Source: a virus
Taxonomy: Duplodnaviria; Heunggongvirae; Uroviricota; Caudoviricetes
Virus record (IMG/VR): IMGVR_UViG_2541047802_000008
Strand: one strand, 5' to 3'
DNA: 40,539 nucleotides
The translations under genes and the position numbers were made by a program. This document shows, piece after piece, positions 1-37,146 of this stretch. The first letter of the stretch is position 1. Every line of letters begins with the position of its first letter. The notes beneath the pieces are model-generated. The model was not told where the DNA came from. It saw only the letters and a program-made list of their open reading frames with translations, and made no database searches.

Positions 1-1251
1 GTGCTTACCGATACAAAATTAAAAAACCTCAAGCCGCAGGACAAACTGTACAAGGTCTCCGATCGTGACGGGCTGTATGTAGCTGTGCTTACGTCAGGCA
101 CGGTCTCGTTTCGCTATGACTACCGTATCAACGGTCGCCGCGAAACACTGGTAATCGGGCAGTATGGGCGTGACGGTATCAGCCTGGCAGAAGCGCGAGA
201 AGAACTGATTGCTGCAAAGAAGCTGCTTAAAGCAGGCCAGTCACCGGCTGCGGCTAAACGTGACGGTATCAAAAAGATTCGTGGTGCCGAGACGTTTGCG
301 GTACATACCGACAGTTATATGAAACACGTCATCCTGGCTGACAGTACCCGCGCAATGAAGCAGGCGGTGATCGACCGTGACATACTTCCTGTTCTTGGTA
401 ACAAAATGATGGCTGAAATTACCACATCGATGGTTCGTGATTTGTGTGACCGGATTGTCGAACGCGGTGGTCGGGCAACAGCAGTACAGGCCAGGGAGAT
501 CATCAGCAGCGTATACCGTCACGCCAATGACCGTGGTCATGGTTTGTTTAATCCTGCGGCTGACATTAAACCTTCGTCTATCGCCATATTTAAACCACGA
601 GAGCGAACACTGACACCAGAAGAAATTGGCCTGTTCTTCCGCACGCTGGATGCCATTGGTGCTATGGGCACTATGAAAATGGCTTTAAAGCTGGTGCTTA
701 TCACTATGGTTCGTAAAGGCGAATTCACCAATGCAACGTGGGATGAAATAGATTTTAAAAAATGGACATGGACAATTCCTTCAGACCGCATGAAGGGAAG
801 CCGGGCGCACGTTATTTACCTGCCTAAACAGGCACAGGATATATTGGTTGGGTTGCAGATGTGCGCTGGTGGAAGTGAATATCTGGTTCCTGGTCGTTAC
901 AATTTCCGGAAGCCATTATCTAATGCCGCGCTGAACTCTCTGATCGACAGAACGGTGAAAATAATAAATGAAGATGGTGAGCATATTCAGGGCTTCACCG
1001 TACACGATATGCGCCGTACAGCCAGTACGTTGTTGCATGAGGCTGGTTATCCTTCAGACTGGATTGAAAAGGCTCTGGCACATGAGCAGAAAGGTGTGCG
1101 CGCCGTATATAACAAAGCGGAATACGCCAGACAGCGCGCCTACATGTTGCAGCAGTGGGCCGATATGATTGATTCATGGATTGACGGGGAGCATACGGAT
1201 CTGATTCCGTTCTCCCCGTCGAAGTTTGAGAAGTGGATGGCGGGGGAATAA
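1..1251 (+). CDS. int: Tyrosine recombinase / integrase, P4-type (N-terminal arm-binding domain plus catalytic domain)
   Basis: 416-aa ORF; N-terminus LTDTKLKNLKP...YKVSDRDGLY typical of P4-family integrases; C-terminal HDMRRTAST...LAH...Y catalytic signature. Codon at position 1 is GTG, so the 5' end may be truncated or GTG-initiated. Confidence 0.88.
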   Translation: MLTDTKLKNLKPQDKLYKVSDRDGLYVAVLTSGTVSFRYDYRINGRRETLVIGQYGRDGISLAEAREELIAAKKLLKAGQSPAAAKRDGIKKIRGAETFAVHTDSYMKHVILADSTRAMKQAVIDRDILPVLGNKMMAEITTSMVRDLCDRIVERGGRATAVQAREIISSVYRHANDRGHGLFNPAADIKPSSIAIFKPRERTLTPEEIGLFFRTLDAIGAMGTMKMALKLVLITMVRKGEFTNATWDEIDFKKWTWTIPSDRMKGSRAHVIYLPKQAQDILVGLQMCAGGSEYLVPGRYNFRKPLSNAALNSLIDRTVKIINEDGEHIQGFTVHDMRRTASTLLHEAGYPSDWIEKALAHEQKGVRAVYNKAEYARQRAYMLQQWADMIDSWIDGEHTDLIPFSPSKFEKWMAGE

Positions 1252-1449: not shown

Positions 1450-2096
1450 GCAGCACGCTCCCGCCCCTGGATGTCTGTTGGTGACAGCGGAGCATTGCTG
1501 AATGCATTTGTTAATCCGCCAATATCCAACGCGTATCCAGGGTGTAGTTGCACTGCCGGGTCTTCGCACTGATTACCCCAAACATCAAAGCCATGAGACG
1601 TCTGGCGGGCGAACAGTTCAATGCGAGAAACATCGCCTAATAATTGCACAAGTTTTTCACGAACGATATCTGGCTTTCTTGAATGCTCAAGCCGCGGTGC
1701 GGTAAATGACTGAACGATCCCTGCATTAATGCGCGTAGGTAGTTTTCCCTTTACCGCAAACAGGCAATCTTCACTATTGGCGCGAGTCATGTGTCCCATA
1801 CCCATAACCAGTTTATCTGGTTGTCGACTACCACATTTTATCCACGTGAAGCCCTTCATCGTCATCAGACGGAATCCCCAGGCTTCAACAACTTTTAGTG
1901 CTTCGAGTGGTTGTGTTGGCACCCACCACATGGCCAACAGACAGTTTTCATCGGCCAAATCCCACACAGGAAGGCGGCAGATATCCAGCACACTCATAAC
2001 CGGATATTTAAAACCGGCACCGCGATTACCATCTGCGGCTTTGTCCCGGTATACCCAGGGTGGATCTGCATAGATTAGTGTGTATTTCTTAGTCAT
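1446..2096 (-). CDS. MT-A70 family N6-adenine DNA methyltransferase (Dam-like orphan methylase)
   Basis: Translation contains TLIYADPPWVY (DPPW catalytic motif) near the N-terminus. ATG at 2096 preceded by GGGGTGG; a GTG at 2108 is an alternative start. Confidence 0.8.
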   Translation of the reverse strand: MTKKYTLIYADPPWVYRDKAADGNRGAGFKYPVMSVLDICRLPVWDLADENCLLAMWWVPTQPLEALKVVEAWGFRLMTMKGFTWIKCGSRQPDKLVMGMGHMTRANSEDCLFAVKGKLPTRINAGIVQSFTAPRLEHSRKPDIVREKLVQLLGDVSRIELFARQTSHGFDVWGNQCEDPAVQLHPGYALDIGGLTNAFSNAPLSPTDIQGRERAA

Positions 2097-2340
2097 AAAC
2101 CACCCCACAACATCCTATGCCGCTATAGTCGCCACGGCGAAGGCCGTTACCTTTTGTGATACATTGGTCCCTGCGAACCGCGATCCTTGCACGTTCAACA
2201 TCACCAGAAGCAACATCCATACACTGAAGCCAAAGGTGAGCGGCAATGCGGAATTGCCCTTTTTTCTCTCTTTCAATCGCGCGTTTTTCGATCTCTATCG
2301 CCGCAGGAGTAACGGCGACAATCTTTGACGGACTGCGCAT
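2089..2340 (-). CDS. Hypothetical protein (83 aa)
   Basis: ORF in the leftward early operon; ATG at 2340 with AAGG 8 nt upstream; 3' end overlaps the methyltransferase start. No recognisable motif. Confidence 0.3.
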   Translation of the reverse strand: MRSPSKIVAVTPAAIEIEKRAIEREKKGQFRIAAHLWLQCMDVASGDVERARIAVRRDQCITKGNGLRRGDYSGIGCCGVVYD

Positions 2341-2497
2341 TGAAACCTTATTCATGTGATATTTTTCAAGTCGGCTTAACTTTCTCACTTAATCCAACCC
2401 TCTCTGAAAATTAATGCCAGCAGATAAAGCCATGCTGAAACAGAGGCCAGGAATAAGTACCATCCTGACCATTTGCTCCAGTGCCTTAGCAGCGCAC

Positions 2498-2746
2498 TCA
2501 TGCAGCGTTGCTCACGGGACGATATACACGTTGCTGAACAGGAGGCTTTTTACCCTGGAACTCTGCCGGGCTTGCTGCCTGACGTTCATCAAGCCAACGC
2601 TCAACTTCATCACGGTTCCATGCGCAGCGTTTATCGGTGATATACCAGCGTTTAGGAAATTCCCCTGCGCGCTCCATACGGTCGATAGTGCTCCATGACA
2701 GTGGCACCACCGCCAGGAGTTCTTTCTTACCTAATGCACCTTTCAT
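2498..2746 (-). CDS. AlpA-family phage regulatory protein / putative excisionase (HTH)
   Basis: Translation LSWSTIDRMERAGEFPKRWYITDKRCAWNRDEVERWL matches the AlpA/Xis-type HTH pattern; AGAGG SD 6 nt before ATG at 2746. Confidence 0.7.
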   Translation of the reverse strand: MKGALGKKELLAVVPLSWSTIDRMERAGEFPKRWYITDKRCAWNRDEVERWLDERQAASPAEFQGKKPPVQQRVYRPVSNAA

Positions 2747-2795
2747 GAATACCTCTCTTGGTTGCAGTGCGGCGCACGTGGCGCCGCGGTGGTGG

Positions 2796-3818
2796 TTACT
2801 CGAATTCTGGACGCATATCGTTAAGCGTCATCATGAATTTTTGGTGATATTCATCACCGAGCTTTTCAGCCATGGTGTTAATTTCATTTTCAGCGCGCTT
2901 GAACATCGTTTTTGCATCTTCAGCAGATGGATCCAGGCTATTAAGTATCGCGATGATATATTCTCGAGCTTCTTCTCGTTCTGAATCTGAAATTGGCGAC
3001 AGGTGTTGACGCTCATCGTCAACTACGGAATATTCACCAGTGATAACAGCTGCGTTATCTTGGCTAAGTCCAGCTTCAGCGCGCTCATCCATAACAACAG
3101 CCTTCTGCATTTCAATAGAAACAGGAAGATATTTGAACAGTCGGCGAATTACTGTTTTTTTAGCCATCTCATCGAAGTGATCAACCCATGGGCCACTGCT
3201 ACCGGCTTTGCTCAGTGCACGAACTTTCTCAACGTCTGCCCGGCTCATAACTTCAAATTGGACTCCGCCATCTTTCAGTCGTGCAACGGCGTAAACGTGC
3301 GTTAATTCTCCGCGGTCACCTGTTTCGCAAGGTAAATGCTCGAGCGTTTCTTCCAGGCCGTATGAGTAGCTGAATTTGTCGTTTGTATGTACGGTACGAG
3401 CCGAGATACTCAGGATCTGCCCAGAGCGGCGGGCAAGGTCAATCATTCCGCGATAGCCGATAATCAGCTGTGCTTCTGTAGATACGGTTTCCCATCTTCC
3501 ATTTACTTTCTGGCGTTTGTCGAACGGTATCAGGTAAGCGTGTCCAAGAGCTCCGCCTGGTTCAAGACCCAATTGGGCACATTGCATAATTGCCCCCAGG
3601 AAGCTGGCTTGGTCGCATGATGCAAGTTTTGGAACCTTTCTGATCTCTGTGGTTGCTATGCGCGCCAGACGGTCTGCTGTCATGTGCTTTGGAAGTGCCA
3701 AAGCCATCTGAGCTTTAATTTTTGGGTCTGCCAGAAGTCCGGCCAGAGTTGTTGGTTTCTCATTATGATGTGCAACTTGGTTACCGGTAGCCGCTGCCTT
3801 AAGTGCATTGATAGACAT
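2796..3818 (-). CDS. recT: RecT-family single-strand annealing recombinase
   Basis: 340-aa translation shares long conserved blocks with Rac RecT (IATTEIRKVP, GLEPG.ALGHAYL.PF, LIIGYRGMIDLARRSGQI, THVYAVARLKDGG.QFEVM, GPWV.H..EMAKKT.IRRLFKYLPVSIE). Confidence 0.92.
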   Translation of the reverse strand: MSINALKAAATGNQVAHHNEKPTTLAGLLADPKIKAQMALALPKHMTADRLARIATTEIRKVPKLASCDQASFLGAIMQCAQLGLEPGGALGHAYLIPFDKRQKVNGRWETVSTEAQLIIGYRGMIDLARRSGQILSISARTVHTNDKFSYSYGLEETLEHLPCETGDRGELTHVYAVARLKDGGVQFEVMSRADVEKVRALSKAGSSGPWVDHFDEMAKKTVIRRLFKYLPVSIEMQKAVVMDERAEAGLSQDNAAVITGEYSVVDDERQHLSPISDSEREEAREYIIAILNSLDPSAEDAKTMFKRAENEINTMAEKLGDEYHQKFMMTLNDMRPEFE

Positions 3819-5258: not shown

Positions 5259-5273
5259 TTACCCGTAAGGTAA
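5259..5273. promoter_or_regulatory. Operator-like palindrome TTACC-CGTAA-GGTAA (OL region)
   Basis: Second perfect dyad 62 bp from the first, same intergenic region. Confidence 0.6.
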
Positions 5274-5330: not shown

Positions 5331-5915
5331 TTATTGTTTGCTTTTTTCGTTCTGGTTGATGACAAATTCAATGTAACTTTCGATCTTTGCTTTCTCGGTT
5401 TCGGGTAACAATGCGTAGCGTGAGCGGTCATAGTTGATAGTCGCAGGGTCGTGCGGGTGAATCAGTAGTTCATATCCGTGACGCCCGAATGCGGATGCAA
5501 CATTCTCCAGGGTGGAAATGGAAACGCTGACCTCATTGTTTAACAGGCGGCTGATTGTCACCTGGGCGACGCCGGATGCGCGGTGAAGTTTTCCCTGTGT
5601 TGAAAGGTCGCGGCTTTCGCTCATCCAGCGTTCCAGGTTGTGAGCCGCCAGCTGACCAATGTCGCTTGGGCCGACAGGCTGAAAACCTTCCTGAGAAAGC
5701 GAGCGATCGATATCAAGCCAGTTACGGGGTTTATTGGCGGCAGCTTCAATTTTTCGCGCAACCTGGTCGCCGATAACCTTCTTGCCAAGAGCCCAGCGGT
5801 TTACCAGATTTGCCTGAGTTCCAAGTTTTTCTGCCATCCGCGTCTGAACACCATTGAATTCACGGTCGATCAAGTCGTTGAGATTTTGCCTGCGGACGTC
5901 CTGGATACTTTTCAT
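5331..5915 (-). CDS. Prophage repressor candidate: tandem HTH (two XRE/lambda-repressor-like DNA-binding domains), no peptidase S24 autocleavage domain
   Basis: 194 aa; N-terminal RRQNLNDLIDREFNGVQTRMAEKLGTQANLVNRW and a second HTH-like segment SGVAQVTISRLLNNEVSVSISTLENVASAFG; no LexA-like Ser/Lys cleavage module. Divergent from a Cro-like gene, flanked on both sides by operator-like dyads. No SD in the last 12 nt before the ATG (the nearest GAGG is about 15 nt upstream, too far). Confidence 0.7.
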   Translation of the reverse strand: MKSIQDVRRQNLNDLIDREFNGVQTRMAEKLGTQANLVNRWALGKKVIGDQVARKIEAAANKPRNWLDIDRSLSQEGFQPVGPSDIGQLAAHNLERWMSESRDLSTQGKLHRASGVAQVTISRLLNNEVSVSISTLENVASAFGRHGYELLIHPHDPATINYDRSRYALLPETEKAKIESYIEFVINQNEKSKQ

Positions 5916-5970: not shown

Positions 5971-6033
5971 TTACCCATCAGGTAAATGCACCTCATAGGT
6001 AACTATCCTTGATTTTTGTTACCTTATGGGTGA
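5971..6033. promoter_or_regulatory. Immunity-region operator cluster (OR-like): three TTACC-N5-GGTAA-type dyads overlapping divergent promoters
   Basis: Sites at 5971..5985 (perfect), 5988..6002 (GCACC-TCATA-GGTAA) and 6019..6033 (TTACC-TTATG-GGTGA). A candidate rightward promoter TTGTTA-N17-TATTAT overlaps the third site. Confidence 0.6.
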
Positions 6034-13269: not shown

Positions 13270-13438
13270 GAACTGGAAGCAATGAGTTATGCCTTCCGTG
13301 GCTGTACTGGTTTACAGCATGAAGTCATCGCAATGGCGTCCTGCTGTAAAAAGGGCAAGGGCGGTGATAGTCCTTCAAGGGAAACCATCACCGCCAAGCA
13401 CCTGGAACTTCTGGCATCACGGTCCTTAGGCGTGATTC

Positions 13439-13515
13439 TGGCGTGGCATGCAGGATTCGAACCTGCGACCAACCGCTTAGAAGGCGGTTGCTCTGTCCAA
13501 CTGAGCTAATGCCAC
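13439..13515 (-). tRNA. tRNA-Arg (anticodon UCU, reads AGA), phage-encoded, CCA encoded
   Basis: Reverse complement folds as a cloverleaf: acceptor GTGGCAT/ATGCCAC, D-arm GCTC...GAGC, anticodon stem ACCGC/GCGGT with loop CTTCTAA, T-arm GCAGG-TTCGAAT-CCTGC, discriminator G, CCA. Related to but distinct from host argU as recalled. Confidence 0.9.
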
Positions 13516-30091: not shown

Positions 30092-30176
30092 TATTCGGAA
30101 TTGTATTGTTCGGAAGAATAATAAAATAACTAGTTAATTTGTGGATTGGTGCTGTTTTTCCATGATAGGGGTAATT

Positions 30177-30557
30177 ATGAGAAAAGTATTTTTGATTTTT
30201 GGATTTATGCTTCTCGTTGGATGCCAGTCAGCTGCACAGTTTGAAAGAAATATGCTTACGTGGCGCGGGCAGAGTATAGACGCAATGGTTCAGCAGTGGG
30301 GGTATCCTCAGGGAGAGCTTACATCTCCAGATGGAAACAGAGTGTATGTTTACTCAAGCTCTGGTAGTTATAACGTACCACAAACCACAACGTATAATAC
30401 TACGTCTAATCTAATTGGTAATACTATATATTCAAACACATACGCAACAACTGATGGCGGTTATACACTCCATTTCAGTTGCTCTGTTTACGTTGAGTTT
30501 GGTGCTGATAAGATTATTAAAAATGTTACATGGCGCGGTAATAATTGCGTTGCGTGA
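30177..30557 (+). CDS. Lipoprotein (126 aa) with signal peptide and lipobox LVGC; accessory gene
   Basis: MRKVFLIFGFMLLVGCQS signal/lipobox; Thr/Ser/Tyr-rich mature region; AT-rich surroundings. Confidence 0.6.
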   Translation: MRKVFLIFGFMLLVGCQSAAQFERNMLTWRGQSIDAMVQQWGYPQGELTSPDGNRVYVYSSSGSYNVPQTTTYNTTSNLIGNTIYSNTYATTDGGYTLHFSCSVYVEFGADKIIKNVTWRGNNCVA

Positions 30558-30565
30558 CATGTCAC
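30554..30565. repeat. 12-bp perfect palindrome GTGACATGTCAC (copy 3 of 3)
   Basis: Overlaps the lipoprotein stop codon and directly abuts the terminator hairpin. Confidence 0.7.
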
Positions 30566-30590
30566 AGGCCGCTTTCGCGGCCTTGTTTTT
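30566..30590 (+). terminator. Rho-independent terminator after the lipoprotein gene
   Basis: AGGCCGC-TTT-CGCGGCCT hairpin followed by TGTTTTT. Confidence 0.6.
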
Positions 30591-30750
30591 AACGAATGCC
30601 ACCGCCACCCGGGCGGGAATCCGCAGAACGCCCACCGCAGCGTGAGCCGTCAGCAGCAGTGTCGCTGTCGTGCTGACAACGACCGGCAAAGGCCTGAGTT
30701 GAAGCTACCAGAGACAACAAAACGAACAGTGCAGCAAATGCTTTTTTCAT
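30589..30750 (-). CDS. Small secreted protein candidate (53 aa) with signal peptide
   Basis: MKKAFAALFVLLSLVASTQAFA signal peptide followed by a short Cys-containing Gly/Arg-rich region; weak RBS. Confidence 0.3.
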   Translation of the reverse strand: MKKAFAALFVLLSLVASTQAFAGRCQHDSDTAADGSRCGGRSADSRPGGGGIR

Positions 30751-30821
30751 TGTGAAATTTCCATCTATAAGCCACCTCAATGTGGCGTCAATGAGTGTAG
30801 CACTGACTTTTGTTTCGTCCA

Positions 30822-30844
30822 CAAAAAAGCCCGCAGCGCGGGCT
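30822..30844 (-). terminator. Rho-independent terminator ending the minus-strand accessory operon
   Basis: Plus-strand AAAAAA-GCCCGCAGCGCGGGC; on the minus strand the hairpin is followed by U6, immediately 3' of the 30844 stop. Confidence 0.55.
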
Positions 30845-31392
30845 TACTTTTCTTCAGGTTTGTTGTCTTCAGATTTCTTCTTGATGCTTGGTTTTTGTCT
30901 AAGAACGAAAATACCAGCCACTGCAACAACTGTACCGATCACTGTGCCAGCTAGAACTTCATGGCCTGTTAAACCTAATAATGTTGCACAAGCTACTGTA
31001 AAAATAGTTGCACTCAGGCCAAACCACTGCCCACGTTTATCTCTATTAATAGCCCCGTCAAGTGCCTTTTCCTCCATTTTCTGGCGGTGAGCAAACTCCT
31101 TCTCCGTCAGCTGGAAGATGCGTTCGGGGGCATCAGGTAAAATATCCTGATACCCGCGAAGCAGATAGGGGGGAGGAAGCGGACCCTGAAACGCATGGTG
31201 AGCGACAACTATCTCCTGAATTTCAGGGCGATCAAGAACTCTTGTGAAGGCATCTGGGTGTTGAATGATCTCGTTACTTAGCCCTTCCTCAACTTCCTCG
31301 AACTCAGTTTCTTCGTTATCACTTGGTTGCCCAATAGATTTTTGCATATTTGTCGAAGGACATTCCTTTAGCTTCTGGTTTTCCTCTTGCAT
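30844..31392 (-). CDS. Membrane protein (182 aa) with acidic N-terminal region and two C-terminal TM helices (DUF2335-like)
   Basis: C-terminal hydrophobic segments WFGLSATIFTVACATLLGL and LAGTVIGTVVAVAGIFVL followed by a Lys-rich tail; RGQ motif before the first TM. Start at 31392 overlaps the upstream gene by 74 nt; a later start at 31347 is possible. Confidence 0.5.
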   Translation of the reverse strand: MQEENQKLKECPSTNMQKSIGQPSDNEETEFEEVEEGLSNEIIQHPDAFTRVLDRPEIQEIVVAHHAFQGPLPPPYLLRGYQDILPDAPERIFQLTEKEFAHRQKMEEKALDGAINRDKRGQWFGLSATIFTVACATLLGLTGHEVLAGTVIGTVVAVAGIFVLRQKPSIKKKSEDNKPEEK

Positions 31393-31645
31393 TTGAGTTT
31401 TTCCCTGTCACTATTGCCCATTTTCCGCCAGCAGGCGCTGCAATTTTTTTTCCGTTCTTTACTATATATTCAGCATAAACACGATTTTCTGACCGTCTGA
31501 GATCGTCTCCGACCATATTCATGTCTCTTGATATAACTTTGACGACAGAGTCTCGGTTTAAAGCCTTGGCATAGTTGGAGCCAGGAACGATACCCAAAGG
31601 GGTGCCAGACTCTATAGCCAGCTCCTTGACATATCTTCTGCTCAT
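31319..31645 (-). CDS. Hypothetical protein (108 aa)
   Basis: ATG at 31645 with GAGG 6 nt upstream, 22 nt downstream of an operator-like dyad; basic protein, function unknown. Confidence 0.45.
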   Translation of the reverse strand: MSRRYVKELAIESGTPLGIVPGSNYAKALNRDSVVKVISRDMNMVGDDLRRSENRVYAEYIVKNGKKIAAPAGGKWAIVTGKNSNARGKPEAKGMSFDKYAKIYWATK

Positions 31646-31666
31646 ATGAACCTCAACCAATCGACT

Positions 31667-31681
31667 TTACCAATCGGGTAA
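31667..31681. promoter_or_regulatory. Operator-like dyad TTACC-AATCG-GGTAA
   Basis: Perfect dyad between the Ant-like gene and the 31645 gene. Confidence 0.5.
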
Positions 31682-31766
31682 TTTTAAACATGAGTATAAT
31701 GCTTTTAACTGCAACGAGTGTAAACAATTATTGATAATTGTAGGCACATCCATGTGCCGCCGCTCG

Positions 31767-32423
31767 TCAGAAGAACCCTGCTTTGTCGTTGATATACTCC
31801 GCGTGGGTCTGGATATCACGCAGGCATTTGCTCACACCGACGATGTAGCAGAACATGGTGGTCAGCTCCGCCGCCGCGCCCGATACGTCGTGCCCGTCGT
31901 CCTGTAACTGGTTCAGCAGATTCATCAGCAGTGAGTGCTCCGTCAGGCCGAGAACACCAGACGGCGAGTGAATCAAACTGCGGTAGCCGGGCTTCAGCGG
32001 GGCGCTGTATTCTTTTTTGTCTTCCAGCTTGATCGCCTCCATAATGGCGGGCATGAAGCCTGACAAGACCTTCTCCACTTTTGTTTCTTGTTGTCTTAAA
32101 CGTTTCTCGCATTCAATGAAGTAGCGTCGCACCTGGCGACCTTTTTCGTTACGCTCGACCATCGCCAGCTCTTTGGCTGTATCAAGGGTGAGGTGGTACT
32201 CTTTGCGGTTGTGGCCGCCTCTACCAGATGTTTGCTTTCCCAAATTGGAAAGCAAAATATAGTCTTGATTTTCAATGAATTCGTATTCTGATATGCGATT
32301 TGTAATCCATGCTGCAAACACCTTTTTAACACCTAAAAAAGCGTGCAGATCGCGGGCATTACAAAGTAGGGCTGTTTCGTTAGATATAGTGCCGTTGAAT
32401 ACGGGGATGAGTTGAGCGTTCAT
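31767..32423 (-). CDS. Ant-like antirepressor candidate (218 aa): N-terminal AntA-like domain plus C-terminal domain shared with the 33574..33831 protein
   Basis: N-terminal [33 protein letters not shown] resembles the AntA/AntB antirepressor N-domain pattern (from memory). The C-terminal ~70 aa align with the 85-aa protein at about 45% identity (IH(S/T)P.GV..L.E.S.LM.LL..L..DG..V.G..AELT...Y......DLQTH). Confidence 0.6.
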
Positions 32424-32580
32424 GATGGCGTCTCCACTTAGCGAATTACATCACCACCGCTGAGACCAATCAGATGGTGGTGAACTGAACGGAGTTGGTC
32501 TTACCGGCCTAAGTGGTACCGGCGTCCTTTCGGACCCCCATTCAGCCCACCATAATTCTGGCATGACTGTGCTATACGCA

Positions 32581-32665
32581 TAAAAAAACCACGTCTGGCG
32601 TGGTATGCGCCACTTAGTAATCCGGGAGACCAATCCCGGCACTGGATTTTGCCAGTGCCCGATTA
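32581..32665 (-). ncRNA. Candidate small RNA or attenuating leader upstream of the Ant-like gene
   Basis: Minus-strand unit: candidate promoter near 32660-32700 (TTTACA-N18-TAGTAA on the minus strand, overlapped by an operator dyad), two adjacent hairpins (32640..32657 and 32622..32639) and an intrinsic terminator (CCACG-CCAGA-CGTGG plus U7, plus-strand 32582..32603). No convincing ORF. Confidence 0.3.
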
Positions 32666-32694
32666 CTATGGCACAAGAGGAGTGCAATGTAAAT

Positions 32695-32709
32695 TTACCG
32701 CAAAGGTAA
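32695..32709. promoter_or_regulatory. Operator-like dyad TTACC-GCAAA-GGTAA
   Basis: Perfect dyad overlapping the candidate promoter of the leader/Ant transcription unit. Confidence 0.5.
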
Positions 32710-32787
32710 TGATAAACGCGAAGAAATATTAAAATCAACCGTATTTGGTTGATTGCGTTTAACGCTTGATCACCTGAAAGCAAGATA

Positions 32788-32802
32788 TTACCTTTAAGGT
32801 AA
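32788..32802. promoter_or_regulatory. Operator-like dyad TTACC-TTTAA-GGTAA
   Basis: Perfect dyad 21 nt upstream of ATG 32823. Confidence 0.5.
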
Positions 32803-32822
32803 TGTTATTGTGAGGAAAAGCA

Positions 32823-33551
32823 ATGGAAGTTTTCTGGATAGTTGTTGGTGTGGTTGCGGTGATTATTTACGTTATCAACCAGAACAAGACTAAGATCTCT
32901 GATCGTACGGTCGTTAATCATAACAAAACGATAAAGACCGAAGATGGGGAGATAACGATTAATCGTACACAGGTGATAGAACACACCTCTACTCAGTTTC
33001 AAAAAACTGGAGGTAATGCGCCTAATATTTCCGCACCTCCTGCTTATGATAGTGCGGTAATCCAGACATATTATAAACAGCAGGAGTTAGCAAAAGAGAG
33101 GCAACTGATTCAGCCAAAGCCGTTTACAGCTGAGCTTCCACCTGGAGTGTCAACGCGTCCGGCATATCATGGAAGATTCCCTGGTGATGACATATCGTCT
33201 CAGTCATCTAAAAAAGCACCTCAGGCAGTATCAGAGCCAGCAAGAATACCTTCTGTATCGCCGCCAAAAGAAGAATCAGCTAACAGAGTTTCAAGTGGTA
33301 GCAAGCAGTGCTTGCGATGCAGAATAAACCTACCATATGAAAAATTCAGGAAATCGTCAAAAAATCCAGATGGATTGACTAAGTGGTGTGCAAGGTGTCT
33401 CGATGGCCCAAAGAATACACGCCATATGAAGTGGTGCCCAATTTGTAATGTCCGCAGAAAACGAACAAGCTTTTACCCTAATAATCAAAATGCGGATGGC
33501 TTAATGGCATGGTGCAAAACGTGCTGGGACGAGCACAAAGCGAAACGATAG
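32823..33551 (+). CDS. Membrane-anchored protein (242 aa): N-terminal TM helix, low-complexity linker, two tandem Cys4 zinc-ribbon repeats
   Basis: TM helix FWIVVGVVAVIIYVI; C-terminal repeats C-LRC-x22-WC-ARC and C-PIC-x24-WC-KTC, each with DGL before WC; GAGG SD. Confidence 0.6.
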   Translation: MEVFWIVVGVVAVIIYVINQNKTKISDRTVVNHNKTIKTEDGEITINRTQVIEHTSTQFQKTGGNAPNISAPPAYDSAVIQTYYKQQELAKERQLIQPKPFTAELPPGVSTRPAYHGRFPGDDISSQSSKKAPQAVSEPARIPSVSPPKEESANRVSSGSKQCLRCRINLPYEKFRKSSKNPDGLTKWCARCLDGPKNTRHMKWCPICNVRRKRTSFYPNNQNADGLMAWCKTCWDEHKAKR

Positions 33552-33575
33552 GCCGCTCTTGCGGCCTTTAAATTT
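33551..33575 (+). terminator. Rho-independent terminator after the zinc-ribbon protein gene
   Basis: GGCCGC-TCTT-GCGGCC hairpin followed by TTTAAATTT. Confidence 0.5.
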
Positions 33576-33831
33576 ACCGGGTTTGTTTTCGTAATTGTTC
33601 GGCACAATAGTCGAGATGTGTTTGCAGATCCTGCATAGACATCTGTGAGCTGGTGACGTAGTTAATCAGTGCAGTCAGTTCGGCAAGTGGGCCATCGACA
33701 TTAAATCCATCCTTATCGAGATCCCGGAGTAATTTCATCAAGTGCGATCCCTCCACCAGTGACCTGACGCCTCCCGGCGTGTGAATCCTTTCGGTAAATC
33801 CGTCTTCCAGTGGATAGTGATACTGCTGCAT
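33574..33831 (-). CDS. LexA-controlled small protein (85 aa), paralogue of the Ant-like C-terminal domain; candidate SOS-inducible antirepressor or modulator
   Basis: ATG at 33831 with GGAGAAG SD; a near-consensus LexA box lies 22 nt upstream. The ORF-track start at 33954 would run through the LexA box and operator and is rejected. Confidence 0.6.
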   Translation of the reverse strand: MQQYHYPLEDGFTERIHTPGGVRSLVEGSHLMKLLRDLDKDGFNVDGPLAELTALINYVTSSQMSMQDLQTHLDYCAEQLRKQTR

Positions 33832-33852
33832 CTTATCTTCTCCATGCAATAA

Positions 33853-33868
33853 CTGTATATTTATACAG
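33853..33868. promoter_or_regulatory. LexA (SOS) box CTGTATATTTATACAG
   Basis: With flanks AACTGTATATTTATACAGTA it matches the enterobacterial LexA consensus TACTGTATATATATACAGTA at 18 of 20 positions; a TATAAA -10-like element lies inside the box on the coding (minus) strand. Confidence 0.75.
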
Positions 33869-33907
33869 TAGCAAATAATTTGTTTGCTATCCAGCACGTT
33901 TTGCAAA

Positions 33908-33922
33908 TTACCCGAAAGGTAA
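33908..33922. promoter_or_regulatory. Operator-like dyad TTACC-CGAAA-GGTAA
   Basis: Perfect dyad upstream of the LexA-box promoter, between it and the tailspike gene. Confidence 0.5.
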
Positions 33923-34026
33923 TATCTATTGGTATTTATAGTCTTTTTATCCATATATGGTTTTTCAGGTAATAGAATAACCAGATATGCGGCGCAACGG
34001 GTGCTGCGACTATCTGGAGATTTAAC

Positions 34027-37000
34027 ATGACGGTCTCAACCGAAGTTGACCACAACGAATACACCGGTAACGGCGTTACGACATCGTTTCCGTATACTTT
34101 TCGAATTTTCAGAAAATCAGACCTGGTTGTTCAGGTGTCTGACCTGAACGGAAACGTAACAGAATTGGTTCTGGATACCGGTTATACGGTAACTGGGGCG
34201 GGCACTTATAGTGGCGGTTCTGTGGTTCTTCCGTCTCCGCTTGCTACTGGATGGCGAATTACGATAGATCGTGTGCTTGATGTAGTGCAGGAGACAGACC
34301 TTCGCAATCAGGGAAAATTTTTCCCCGAAGTGCATGAAGATGCCTTTGACTACCTGACGATGCTGATCCAGCAATGTTTTGGGTGGTTCAGACGTGCATT
34401 GATGAAACCATCTTTGCTTGCAAAATATTACGATGCAAAGCAAAACAAAATTTCTAACCTTGCAGATCCATCATTTGAGCAGGACGCTGTAAATAATCGC
34501 TCAATGCGTAATTATGTCGATGCTGCAATCGCCGGGGTTGTTGGTGGTTTTGGTTGGTTTATTCAGTATGGTTCTGGGGCAGTATACCGAACGTTCCAGG
34601 ATAAGATGCGTGATGCTATTAGCCCCAAAGATTTTGGAGCTGTTGGTGATGGTATAAATGACGATTCCACTGCAATAAGCGCGTGCCTTGAAGCCTCATC
34701 TCCAGGTTATAAAATTGACGGATTAGGGCTTACTTTTAAAGTATCAACTCTTCCGGATGTCAGCCGATTTAAAAATGCTCGTTTTTTATTTGAGAGAATA
34801 CCGGGTCAGCCTCTTTTTTATGCTTCTGAAGATTTTATCCAGGGAGAGTTATTTAAAATTACAGATACACCGTGGTACAACGCCTGGACGCAGGATAAAA
34901 CGTTTGTATATGACAATGTCATCTATGCGCCTTTTATGGCTGGAGACCGCCATGGTGTAAATAACCTCCATGTTGCATGGGTTCGCTCAGGAGATGACGG
35001 GAAGACCTGGACAACGCCGGAATGGCTTACAGATTTACATGAAAACTATCCCACAGTTAACTATCACTGCATGAGTATGGGGGTTGTCAGAAATCGCCTT
35101 TTTGCTGTAATTGAGACGCGGACCGTGAGCGGAAATAAACTGCAGGTTGCAGAGTTGTGGGATCGCCCAATGAGTCGCAGCCTTCGCGTTTATGGTGGTA
35201 TAACGAAAGCAGCAAATCAGCAAGTCGCTTATATTCGCATTACTGATCACGGATTATTTGCTGGTGATTTTGTCAACTTCTCAAACTCTGGTGTTACAGG
35301 TGTTACCGGGAATATGACGGTGACTACTGTTATTGATAAAAATACTTTTACAGTTACGACGCAAAATACCCAGGATGTGGATCAGAATAACGAGGGTAGA
35401 TACTGGAGTTTTGGTACATCATTTCACTCGTCACCATGGAGAAAAACCAGTCTTGGAACTATTCCTTCTTTTGTTGACGGAAGCACTCCTGTTACTGAGA
35501 TTCACAGTTTTGCGACGATTAGCGATAACAGTTTTGCTGTTGGCTACCATAATGGTGATATTGGTCCACGCGAGCTTGGGATACTCTATTTCTCTGATGC
35601 TTTCGGTTCTCCTGGTAGCTTTGTTCGCAGACGCATACCTGCAGAATATGAGGCGAATGCATCTGAGCCATGTGTAAAATATTATGATGGCATTCTGTAT
35701 CTGACGACCAGGGGGACATTAAGTACTCAACCCGGTAGTTCATTGCACAGAAGCTCTGATTTAGGTACATCATGGAATTCTCTTCGCTTCCCAAATAATG
35801 TTCATCACTCAAACCTTCCTTTTGCCAAAGTTGGCGATGAGCTGATTATTTTTGGCAGTGAGCGCGCATTTGGTGAGTGGGAAGGAGGAGAACCTGATAA
35901 CCGTTATGCAGGAAACTATCCAAGAACATTTATGACCAGAGTTAACGTCAATGAGTGGAGTCTGGATAATGTAGAGTGGGTTAATGTTACTGATCAGATT
36001 TATCAGGGCGGAATAGTTAACTCTGCGGTTGGTGTTGGTTCAGTTTGTATCAAAGACAACTGGCTGTACTACATTTTCGGTGGGGAAGACTTTCTAAACC
36101 CATGGAGCATAGGGGATAACAACAGAAAATATCCTTATGTTCACGATGGTCACCCGGCTGATTTGTATTGTTTCAGGGTGAAAATTAAACAGGAAGAATT
36201 TGTTTCAAGGGATTTTGCCTACGGAGCCACTCCTAACAGAACGCTTCCTACTTTTATGTCGACGTCAGGCGTGAGGACGGTTCCTGTACCTGTTGATTTC
36301 ACAGATGATGTTGCCGTCCAGTCACTGACTGTCCATGCAGGTACATCAGGACAAGTTCGCGCGGAAGTCAAACTTGAGGGTAATTACGCCATTATTGCGA
36401 AGAAAGTACCGTCTGATGATGTTACCGCTCAGAGATTAATCGTTAGCGGCGGTGAAACAACGTCTTCAGCAGATGGTGCAATGATAACGTTGCATGGTTC
36501 CGGAAGCAGTACTCCACGTCGCGCGGTATATAACGCACTCGAACATCTTTTTGAGAACGGAGATGTTAAACCTTATCTTGATAATGTAAATGCTCTTGGT
36601 GGTCCGGGAAACAGGTTCTCGACAGTTTATCTTGGCTCCAATCCTGTGGTTACCAGTGACGGAACATTAAAGACAGAGCCGGTCTCTCCTGACGAAGCAT
36701 TGCTGGATGCCTGGGGTGACGTCAGGTATATCGCTTATAAATGGCTGAACGCTGTCGCTATAAAGGGGGAAGAAGGGGCGAGGATACATCATGGTGTAAT
36801 CGCGCAGCAACTTCGTGATGTTCTTATTTCTCACGGACTCATGGAAGAAGAAAGCACAACATGCCGCTATGCCTTTCTTTGCTATGACGATTATCCCGCA
36901 GTATATGATGACGTCATTACTGGCCAAAGGGAAATGCCGCTGACTGATAATGACGGGAGCATCATTGTTGATGAGGATGATAATCCAGTGATGGTAATGG

Positions 37001-37146
37001 AAGACATCATTGAGCGCGTTGAAATAACGCCAGCAGGATCTAGATGGGGGGTCAGACCTGATCTCTTATTCTATATCGAGGCAGCATGGCAGCGCAGAGA
37101 AATGGATAAGATAAAAGAGCGGATTCAGTCTCTGGAAGAACGTTAA
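34027..37146 (+). CDS. Tailspike protein: conserved N-terminal particle-binding domain, beta-helix (pectate-lyase-like) domain, C-terminal intramolecular chaperone (S74-like) domain
   Basis: 1039 aa; N-terminal EYTGNGVTTSFPYTF motif; KDFGAVGDGINDDSTAI is the typical beta-helix tailspike motif; C-terminal GARIHHGVIAQQLRDVL matches the autoproteolytic chaperone domain of endosialidase-type spikes. Confidence 0.85.
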   Translation: MTVSTEVDHNEYTGNGVTTSFPYTFRIFRKSDLVVQVSDLNGNVTELVLDTGYTVTGAGTYSGGSVVLPSPLATGWRITIDRVLDVVQETDLRNQGKFFPEVHEDAFDYLTMLIQQCFGWFRRALMKPSLLAKYYDAKQNKISNLADPSFEQDAVNNRSMRNYVDAAIAGVVGGFGWFIQYGSGAVYRTFQDKMRDAISPKDFGAVGDGINDDSTAISACLEASSPGYKIDGLGLTFKVSTLPDVSRFKNARFLFERIPGQPLFYASEDFIQGELFKITDTPWYNAWTQDKTFVYDNVIYAPFMAGDRHGVNNLHVAWVRSGDDGKTWTTPEWLTDLHENYPTVNYHCMSMGVVRNRLFAVIETRTVSGNKLQVAELWDRPMSRSLRVYGGITKAANQQVAYIRITDHGLFAGDFVNFSNSGVTGVTGNMTVTTVIDKNTFTVTTQNTQDVDQNNEGRYWSFGTSFHSSPWRKTSLGTIPSFVDGSTPVTEIHSFATISDNSFAVGYHNGDIGPRELGILYFSDAFGSPGSFVRRRIPAEYEANASEPCVKYYDGILYLTTRGTLSTQPGSSLHRSSDLGTSWNSLRFPNNVHHSNLPFAKVGDELIIFGSERAFGEWEGGEPDNRYAGNYPRTFMTRVNVNEWSLDNVEWVNVTDQIYQGGIVNSAVGVGSVCIKDNWLYYIFGGEDFLNPWSIGDNNRKYPYVHDGHPADLYCFRVKIKQEEFVSRDFAYGATPNRTLPTFMSTSGVRTVPVPVDFTDDVAVQSLTVHAGTSGQVRAEVKLEGNYAIIAKKVPSDDVTAQRLIVSGGETTSSADGAMITLHGSGSSTPRRAVYNALEHLFENGDVKPYLDNVNALGGPGNRFSTVYLGSNPVVTSDGTLKTEPVSPDEALLDAWGDVRYIAYKWLNAVAIKGEEGARIHHGVIAQQLRDVLISHGLMEEESTTCRYAFLCYDDYPAVYDDVITGQREMPLTDNDGSIIVDEDDNPVMVMEDIIERVEITPAGSRWGVRPDLLFYIEAAWQRREMDKIKERIQSLEER

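Follow-up and report, generated by a model that had tools for sequence, protein, structure and literature searches.

We found that the ant locus of the window, the whole stretch of 40,539 nucleotides of viral DNA analyzed here, is very probably an induction module orthologous to the Rep/Ant switch of Salmonella phage SPC32H, in which a LexA-gated antirepressor would act against a non-cleavable repressor. The locus is an Escherichia coli copy of a characterised prophage induction switch, which is real, ordinary, and already known. The genetic elements (Table 1), their homologies, the conservation of the LexA box, the synteny, and a network of operators were all directly observed.

The region matched epsilon15/phiV10-like podoviruses (genus Uetakevirus), 16 records showing 95-99% nucleotide identity and 15 of these belonging to E. 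coli phages, and the window is recognizable as an E. coli prophage of this epsilon15/phiV10-like group. Its genes are arranged in the order of integrase, recombination genes, rep/cro, replication, terminase, and virion genes, followed by an accessory island of 3.4 kb (30141..33551), and then by a small minus-strand gene (ant), the tailspike gene, and the lysis genes; the whole order corresponds to the epsilon15 plan. The accessory island is located downstream of ant and carries a second Ant-domain gene. The ant gene is placed between the last virion gene and the tailspike gene, on the opposite strand and divergent from the latter. The same synteny was identified in SPC32H, epsilon15, and other relatives, and the location of a stand-alone Ant between virion genes and tailspike, as given in an earlier note on this DNA, was verified here and also in SPC32H.

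Table 1. Coordinates of the features identified in the window. A1 refers to the alignment of 12 phages described in the text.
Feature	Position	Strand	Basis
Early-left region dyads	5197, 5259
rep: immunity repressor, 194 aa, SPC32H Rep homolog	5331..5915	-	PDB and Pfam matches
rep-cro intergenic operator dyads	5971..5985 (exact); 6019..6033 (one mismatch)	.
Dyad pair	8295/8357
Dyads upstream of terminase and portal genes	10669, 13838
Dyads in accessory island	three sites
Paralogue, 218 aa: AntA N-domain + Ant-like C-domain (residues ~135-216)	31767..32423	-	Pfam, PHROG, PDB
C4 antisense RNA upstream of the 218-aa gene, same strand	32473..32557	-	Rfam RF01695, 61.2 bits (gathering score 45)
IsrK-type leader/sRNA, a1/b1 C4 targets, own terminator	32582..32658	-	Rfam RF01394, 67.7 bits (gathering score 50)
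Promoter-like TTTACA-17-CATAGT	32693..32665	-	7 nt short of the 5' boundary of the IsrK match in Rfam
Operator dyad directly adjoining the -35 of the IsrK/C4/antA promoter	32695..32709	.
G+C-rich, terminator-like hairpin in the gap from the 242-aa ORF to the 3' end of ant	33550..33567	.	
ant: stand-alone antirepressor, 85 aa, SPC32H Ant ortholog	33574..33831	-	homology
Shine-Dalgarno GGAG of ant, 8 nt 5' of the ATG	33840..33843	-	direct read; invariant in 12 phages
LexA (SOS) box AACTGTATATTTATACAGTA	33851..33870	.	predicted; 18/20 to the consensus TACTGTATATATATACAGTA
Candidate extended -10 of ant: TG (33873..33872), n, TACTGT (33870..33865)	33865..33873	-	proposed from invariant A1 columns
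Inverted repeat TAGCAAA/TTTGCTA, 7 bp, in the promoter spacer	33869..33889	.	window, phiV10, and TL-2011b only
Candidate -35 TGGATA of the ant promoter	33888..33893	-	proposed from T148 G149 G150 A151. A153, invariant in 12 phages
Operator dyad ATTACC-N5-GGTAAT, putative Rep (and Cro) operator	33907..33923	.	over-representation, conservation, epsilon15 annotation
Putative tailspike promoter region TTGGTA ... CATATATGG, then half-site GGTAATA (33968..33974)	33929..33974	+	proposed from layout and conserved A1 columns
Tailspike (K1 endosialidase)	34027..37146	+	Pfam End_beta_propel E = 1.4e-233, End_tail_spike, Peptidase_S74

The ant gene runs on the minus strand from an ATG at 33831 to a stop codon at 33574..33576. 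Its 85-aa product showed 88% identity to SPC32H_020, which is named 'ant: anti-repressor protein' in SPC32H and SPC32N, and matched chain E of PDB 5D50, 'Anti-repressor protein' (E = 4.1e-47, residues 2-84 on 3-85), as well as PHROG 450 (E = 9e-48), with phrog_15539 and phrog_1760 as the only other PHROG matches. No family was matched by Ant in Pfam and NCBIfam, neither of which has a model for the crystallised family, and a Pfam match to DUF724 was discarded as spurious (17.6 bits against a cut-off of 38.4). An ORF extended to 126 aa, with its start at 33954 in the window, can be read there as well as in ZX5 and SPC32H. In nine of the 12 related phages, an in-frame stop removes or shortens the extension, leaving it with no ATG in frame, and because it is broken in these relatives, the 126-aa ORF was rejected as the true gene; the short start fits PHROG 450 and the 86-aa crystallised protein. 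The phages with Ant and those with Rep formed essentially one and the same set, with 35 and 37 records, respectively. In particular, the E. coli phage ZX5 has an Ant identical to that of the window and a Rep with 99.5% identity. The ant gene was also present in 531 of 5426 complete E. coli genomes (approximately 10%), where it is labelled 'hypothetical protein'.

The repressor Rep matched chain A of PDB 5D50, 'Repressor', over its full length (E = 3.5e-42, residues 1-190), and the C-terminal fragment 5D4Z_A (E = 3.6e-20). In the Pfam search, Rep had HTH_3 at residues 106-147 and a weaker HTH-like match at residues 21-61, and Peptidase_S24 was not found, which agrees with the repressor with HTH domains and no S24 module described in the earlier note. 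Rep showed 99.5% identity to the phiV10 repressor and 42.7% identity to SPC32H Rep. Its C-terminal stretch holds 14 invariant columns and is the best conserved part after the N-terminal HTH.

The sequence AACTGTATATTTATACAGTA was the sole match to the LexA consensus with three or fewer mismatches in 40.5 kb, and no such match was obtained in any of 100 dinucleotide shuffles of the window. Two perfect CTGT-N8-ACAG cores were found elsewhere in the window, at 13302 and 17850, with G+C-rich spacers and poor flanks, and these are not conserved in epsilon15; they were set aside as likely chance occurrences, since their number is in line with our estimate of about 0.6 perfect cores expected by chance in 40.5 kb. 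The ant-tailspike intergenic region was aligned for 12 Uetakeviruses of E. coli, Salmonella, Enterobacter, and Klebsiella (alignment A1), and the LexA box occupied the aligned position in all 12, the flanks drifting while the box stays. With SPC32N set aside, all nine phages of E. coli, Salmonella, and Enterobacter had the perfect core, and the left half of the box is ATGT in the three Klebsiella phages. The box of SPC32N departs from that of SPC32H by one substitution, C to A within ACAG, at the equivalent of window position 33855.

Additionally, the alignment contained invariant columns under a candidate -10 (T168 G169. T171 A172. T174 G175 T176), where TACTGT, separated from the candidate -35 TGGATA by a spacer of 17 nt, is the left half of the LexA box. 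We propose that the ant promoter is of the extended -10 type, with transcription starting near 33858. The earlier note had taken a TATAAA over the box (33865..33860) as the -10; this hexamer is not conserved and has no conserved -35 at the right distance, and TGGATA-17-(TGn)TACTGT is conserved instead. The 18/20 box and the good Shine-Dalgarno sequence that it described were both confirmed, whereas the box is 19 nt away from the ATG of the 85-aa gene and not 22 nt. The 7-bp inverted repeat is likewise present, but the regulatory role given to it was not upheld: the repeat was absent from the Salmonella, Enterobacter, and Klebsiella phages of alignment A1, and it is specific to the E. coli clade and probably not a separate regulatory element.

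In a lysogen, host LexA would occupy the box over the -10 of ant and keep the gene off. Upon DNA damage, RecA would be activated, LexA would cleave itself, and transcription of ant would begin. Ant (85 aa), which is tetrameric in SPC32H, would then bind the C-terminal tetramerisation domain of Rep and split the DNA-binding Rep tetramer into dimers with poor binding to ATTACC-N5-GGTAAT, and once the operators are vacated, lytic promoters across the phage would be derepressed while Rep itself stays uncleaved. For this phage, the binding of LexA, the inducibility by SOS, and the interaction of Ant with Rep, including its stoichiometry, are predicted from homology or from the literature. The self-cleavage of LexA requires activated RecA, so that induction should be RecA-dependent even though Rep is not a RecA substrate, and the RecA-independent induction put forward in the earlier note has to be withdrawn. 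In SPC32H, Rep reportedly remains uncleaved in the SOS response and is inactivated by Ant, the expression of which is repressed by LexA, and the point mutation in the LexA box of SPC32N is said to result in constitutive Ant and lytic growth.

PMC7380047 describes Ant as being produced after LexA self-cleavage and inhibiting the repressor by protein-protein interaction. According to PMC9638917, an Ant tetramer engages two Rep dimers and thereby takes apart the tetrameric, DNA-binding form of Rep, and PMC9986798 places the action of Ant at the C-terminal tetramerisation domain of Rep. Phage ZX5 is inducible by mitomycin C (PMC9782041), and a DNA-damaging microcin induces prophages of the phiV10 species. 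The homology to SPC32H Ant and Rep supports the view, already expressed in the earlier note, of a LexA-gated antirepressor directed against a repressor without an autocleavage module. Since Rep shares 43% identity with its SPC32H counterpart, against 88% for Ant, it is by homology that we infer a cognate interaction in the E. coli lineage.

The dyad TTACC-N5-GGTAA, represented beside ant by TTACCCGAAAGGTAA at 33908..33922, occurred in 11 exact copies in the window against 0.15 expected, and in 14 copies against 0.61 expected when one mismatch was allowed. The copies sit within intergenic regions or at their edges. The half-sites at 33907..33923 were invariant in the 12 phages, apart from one base in phiV10 and TL-2011b (GGTGA). 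Furthermore, the GenBank record of epsilon15 is annotated with 'protein_bind repressor' at the equivalent sites, including the one beside gp19, its ant. Given the over-represented copies and the annotation of repressor sites in epsilon15, we regard the dyad as a genuine phage-wide operator.

At 5259/5197 and 8295/8357, operator pairs flank a promoter starting with TCTATTGA, in the layout of a dyad, TCTATTG (-35), and a second operator. The same layout was found at 33908, where the dyad is followed by TCTATTGGTA, the conserved CATATATGG, and the half-site GGTAATA at 33968, all facing the tailspike. Because this arrangement matches the operators flanking rightward promoters elsewhere in the phage, the dyad at 33908 probably serves mainly the tailspike promoter. 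The earlier note had suggested dual control. In such a reading, Rep bound at 33907..33923, approximately 14 bp upstream of the -35 of ant, would co-repress ant with LexA, and Ant synthesis would become self-reinforcing once Rep begins to leave the DNA. The operator itself stands: the dyad is over-represented, recurs in the rep-cro region as well as next to the early-left genes, keeps a conserved spacing to the ant promoter in alignment A1, and is annotated as a repressor site in the epsilon15 record. Dual control itself is doubtful, as the dyad lies upstream of the -35 of ant with no overlap with the core promoter, and together with the half-site at 33968 brackets a rightward promoter-like element in the manner seen at 5259/5197 and 8295/8357. 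Moreover, SPC32N keeps the dyad and has a single base of the LexA box changed, and since it is reportedly a constitutive producer of Ant, the dyad alone would be insufficient to silence ant. A contribution of the dyad to the repression of ant is conceivable but rather improbable, and it is not required for the LexA-gated switch.

The second Ant-domain gene of the phage encodes a protein of 218 aa, in which Pfam AntA was detected with E = 4e-26, and residues 135-216 matched PHROG 450 (E = 1e-35) and 5D50_E (E = 1.5e-13). The 85-aa protein aligned with residues 137-210 of this protein with 42% identity over 74 aa (E = 1e-15). Thus, the paralogy claimed for the two proteins in the earlier note was borne out, and profile searches of both agree with it, PHROG 450 matching Ant as well as the C-domain of the paralogue. 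The C-domain showed 73% identity to ZX5 ORF4 over the last 125 aa. It forms a subfamily of its own, with 74-100% identity within the subfamily and approximately 42% identity to the stand-alone Ant, and its N-terminal fusion partner is an AntA, Bro-N, or P22-Ant-like domain, depending on the Uetakevirus. No LexA box was found upstream of the 218-aa gene, even with one core mismatch allowed.

Upstream of this gene, an IsrK-type leader and a C4 antisense RNA were identified, and the c4-a1b1 model (RF03163) scored 39.9 bits on the leader, just below the gathering score of 46.7. Sites complementary to the C4 loops CCACUUAG and AGACCAA are present in IsrK and also at the Shine-Dalgarno sequence of the 218-aa gene. 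In detail, CUAAGUGG is located at 32617..32610 and again at 32441..32434, where it overlaps the Shine-Dalgarno sequence GUGGAG, and UUGGUCU is located at 32633..32627 and 32469..32463. No ORF, icd-like or other, was found between C4 and the 218-aa gene, the distance from C4 to the ATG at 32423 being only 49 nt. The cassette of the 218-aa gene, as read from these elements, has the architecture of P1 immI with icd missing. An IsrK-C4 cassette also precedes genes with the same C-domain in phiV10, TL-2011b, ZX5, and Tyrion, and was found in two Klebsiella phage loci (L010 and L011). Over-expression of ZX5 ORF4, which has the same fused C-domain, reduced lysogeny approximately 1000-fold (PMC9782041), and the second antirepressor-like gene of the phage in the window could contribute to induction.

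We consider it possible, although only as a tentative reading, that two signals reach one repressor via two versions of one Rep-binding fold, namely the LexA-gated Ant and the IsrK/C4-gated C-domain. On the same tentative footing, the promoter of the IsrK/C4 cassette would carry a Rep operator, and the C-domain would bear interchangeable N-domains. If true, the SPC32H Ant fold would be a portable 'repressor-disassembly' module for SOS induction plus superinfection/anti-immunity decisions. The pairing of a LexA-gated Ant with a C4-gated Ant-domain fusion beside the tailspike was not found in the searchable literature, and the second, C4-RNA-controlled Ant-domain gene is the only part of the locus with some discovery potential.

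The presence of the paralogue raises the alternative that the small Ant is not the main inducer here, with the larger protein or another route inactivating Rep, and the small Ant being redundant or acting mainly in trans on other prophages. The divergence of Rep to 43% identity while Ant stayed at 88%, as well as the loss of lysogeny caused by ZX5 ORF4 (PMC9782041), would be compatible with this alternative, but we consider it highly unlikely. The ant-Rep pair and the LexA box are kept in every Uetakevirus examined, also where the large paralogue is absent, as in SPC32H and epsilon15. The large paralogue has no LexA box, yet DNA damage induces such phages, and it is the Ant-binding C-terminal region of Rep that is best conserved after the N-terminal HTH. 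The idea that the palindrome arose by chance or serves something other than LexA, and that the 85-aa gene, or the 126-aa ORF over the box, is an unrelated accessory gene, could appeal to a LexA box predicted from sequence alone and to the extended ORF being open in the window, ZX5, and SPC32H, but is effectively refuted already by the shuffles (0/100), the box conserved across hosts while its flanks drift, the 88% identity of the protein to a crystallised antirepressor, and the extension broken in nine of the 12 phages.

For the preferred LexA-gated switch, the closest known system is the Rep/Ant switch of Salmonella phage SPC32H (Kim & Ryu 2013, J Virol 87:11775; Kim et al. 2016, PNAS 113:E2480; PDB 5D50, 5D4Z), a member of the same genus. 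The two systems share an orthologous Ant (88% identity; 85 aa here versus 86 aa in SPC32H), a Rep that is homologous over the full length and has no S24 domain, a LexA box aligned over the ant promoter, with the promoter overlap suggested by TGGATA/TG/TACTGT, and the succession of virion genes, ant on the opposite strand, and tailspike. They differ in the host, which is E. coli here and not Salmonella, in Rep, which is just 43% identical and of the phiV10 immunity type, and in the LexA box, which matches at 18/20 positions here and at 17/20 in SPC32H by our own count. In addition, SPC32H and epsilon15 lack the 3.4-kb accessory island (30141..33551). All features that define the SPC32H Rep/Ant/LexA switch and could be tested here were recognized in the window, so that neither the kind of locus nor its occurrence in this genus is new. 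The earlier note had named 186 Tum and Gifsy as the nearest precedents and thereby implied novelty, which cannot be maintained because the SPC32H Ant is orthologous and has the same size, position, and LexA box.

The 186 Tum, Fels-2, and Gifsy-1/2/3 systems (Shearwin 1998; Lemire et al. 2011, PMC3121763) share the logic of a LexA-repressed antirepressor gene and a non-cleavable repressor, and SOS induces these prophages indirectly, as proposed here and as stated in PMC7380047. The feature of this type that is present in the window is the combination of a LexA box at the antirepressor promoter with a repressor without an autocleavage domain. The likeness is one of logic; no sequence relationship was detected when Ant was compared with Pfam, NCBIfam, and PHROG families, and the Tum/Gifsy antirepressors have another genomic location than ant. 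The Ant of SPC32H is said to be distinct from the antirepressors of sipho- and myoviruses. For the 218-aa paralogue only, a likeness was recognized to the immI regions of P1/P7 (C4-icd-ant) and to IsrK-orf45-anrP of Gifsy-1 (PMC4825925), comprising an IsrK-type leader with a1/b1 sites, a C4 RNA, and then an antirepressor gene, C4 loops complementary to the leader and the downstream Shine-Dalgarno sequence, and a phage-repressor operator at the promoter. The cassette of the window differs from these in that no ORF resembling icd or orf45 separates C4 from the antirepressor gene, and in an antirepressor composed of an AntA domain and an SPC32H-Ant-like C-domain.

The main value of these results lies in annotation, as the E. 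coli orthologs of Ant are labelled 'hypothetical protein' and have no Pfam or NCBIfam model. A study of E. coli phage ZX5, whose Ant is identical, overlooked this protein and tested the larger Bro-N paralogue only (PMC9782041). The LexA-Ant-Rep circuit would explain the response of phiV10-like prophages to DNA-damaging drugs and bacteriocins, and this explanation would extend to K1-capsule-specific prophages such as that in the window; the circuit holds no new principle here.

The immI region of P22 (mnt-arc-ant, sar RNA) resembles the ant locus in that its antirepressor locus is located between the virion genes and the tailspike gene. Unlike the ant gene described here, P22 ant is under the control of Mnt, Arc, and sar, not LexA, and P22 c2 is RecA-cleavable; P22 Ant is a large, unrelated protein. 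In TL-2011b, a close relative of the phage in the window, an Arc-like repressor, Ant, and sar RNA were observed at the ant locus.

The dyad TTACC-N5-GGTAA occurred in 14 copies in the window, compared with an expectation of 0.61, and the copies were located within intergenic regions or at their edges, where pairs of dyads often bracketed promoter-like sequences. In the epsilon15 record, the counterparts of these dyads are annotated as repressor sites. This distribution is consistent with a tetrameric Rep (the immunity repressor) that silences early, late, and accessory promoters. The positions of the dyads and of the other features are listed in the table below.

Positions of the features in the window and in the loci of related phages
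Feature	Location	Strand	Remark
TTACC-N5-GGTAA dyads	5197, 5259, 5971, 6019, 6356, 8295, 8357	 	window, 7 of 14
TTACC-N5-GGTAA dyads	10669, 10687, 13838, 31667, 32695, 32788, 33908	 	window, other 7 of 14
Rep gene	5331..5915	minus	window
ant	33574..33831	minus	window
ant and LexA box region	33574..34026	 	window
P1-immI-like cassette	32473..32709	minus	window, upstream of the 218-aa AntA::Ant-C gene
RNA upstream of AntA::Ant-C gene	2870..2959	 	HEMP4 (L014)
Ant-like C-domain loci	877..1152 and 2334..2609	 	TL-2011b (L003)
Ant-like C-domain locus	2499..2774	 	Tyrion (L007)
Ant-like C-domain locus	3074..3769	 	ZX5 (L013)
Ant-like C-domain locus	3012..3271	 	phiV10 (L001)
LexA box	~1455..1475	 	Klebsiella phages (L009, L010, L011)
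tRNA-Arg gene (anticodon TCT)	13439..13515	minus	window, between terminase and portal regions
Accessory island, 3.4 kb	30141..33551	 	window, between last virion gene and ant
Tailspike	34027..37146	 	window, K1-type endosialidase with C-terminal S74 chaperone domain

The conservation of the antirepressor and its repressor was asymmetric: when the E. coli lineage was compared with that of Salmonella, Ant was 88% identical, whereas Rep was only 43% identical and had its identity concentrated at the N-terminal HTH (NLVNRW) and within its final ~35 residues. In view of this asymmetry, one may ask whether Ant from one immunity type cross-reacts with another. In the three Klebsiella Uetakeviruses, the LexA box had ATGT rather than CTGT as its left half (TATATGTATATATATACAGTA), and the stand-alone Ant carried a 12-residue motif in common with the fused C-domain subfamily and not with the Ants of the E. 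coli and Salmonella phages. Of 5426 complete E. coli genomes, 531 carried the region comprising ant and the LexA box, with ant annotated as 'hypothetical protein', and the Ant family has no Pfam or NCBIfam model despite an existing crystal structure.

The fused Ant-like C-domain formed a separate and highly conserved subfamily with variable N-domain partners (AntA, Bro-N, or P22-Ant-like). TL-2011b had three Ant-domain genes, as well as an Arc-like repressor and a sar RNA, and in phiV10 the C-domain match was divided into two pieces across gp23/gp22, as if by a frameshift. In the window, the cassette ahead of the AntA::Ant-C gene contained a promoter-like site with an operator dyad abutting its -35, a terminator-bearing leader/sRNA of the IsrK type, and a C4 antisense RNA, to whose loops both the leader and the SD of the gene were complementary. 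In HEMP4, whose AntA::Ant-C gene was 98% identical, the upstream RNA at the position corresponding to C4 scored as Rfam sRNA-Xcc1 (62.9 bits), not as C4.

Given its tailspike, the epsilon15-like prophage is K1-capsule-specific. Both SPC32H and epsilon15 lack the accessory island, which encodes, besides AntA::Ant-C, a DUF2335 membrane protein, a 113-aa ORF, a 138-aa ORF (PHROG 3716) with an N-terminus that is lipoprotein-like by eye, and a 242-aa protein (PHROG 6762), in whose C-terminal half Cys-rich motifs similar to HNH/endonuclease VII zinc fingers are repeated. Additionally, the tRNA-Arg gene was located upstream of an N4 gp49/Sf6 gp66-family gene.
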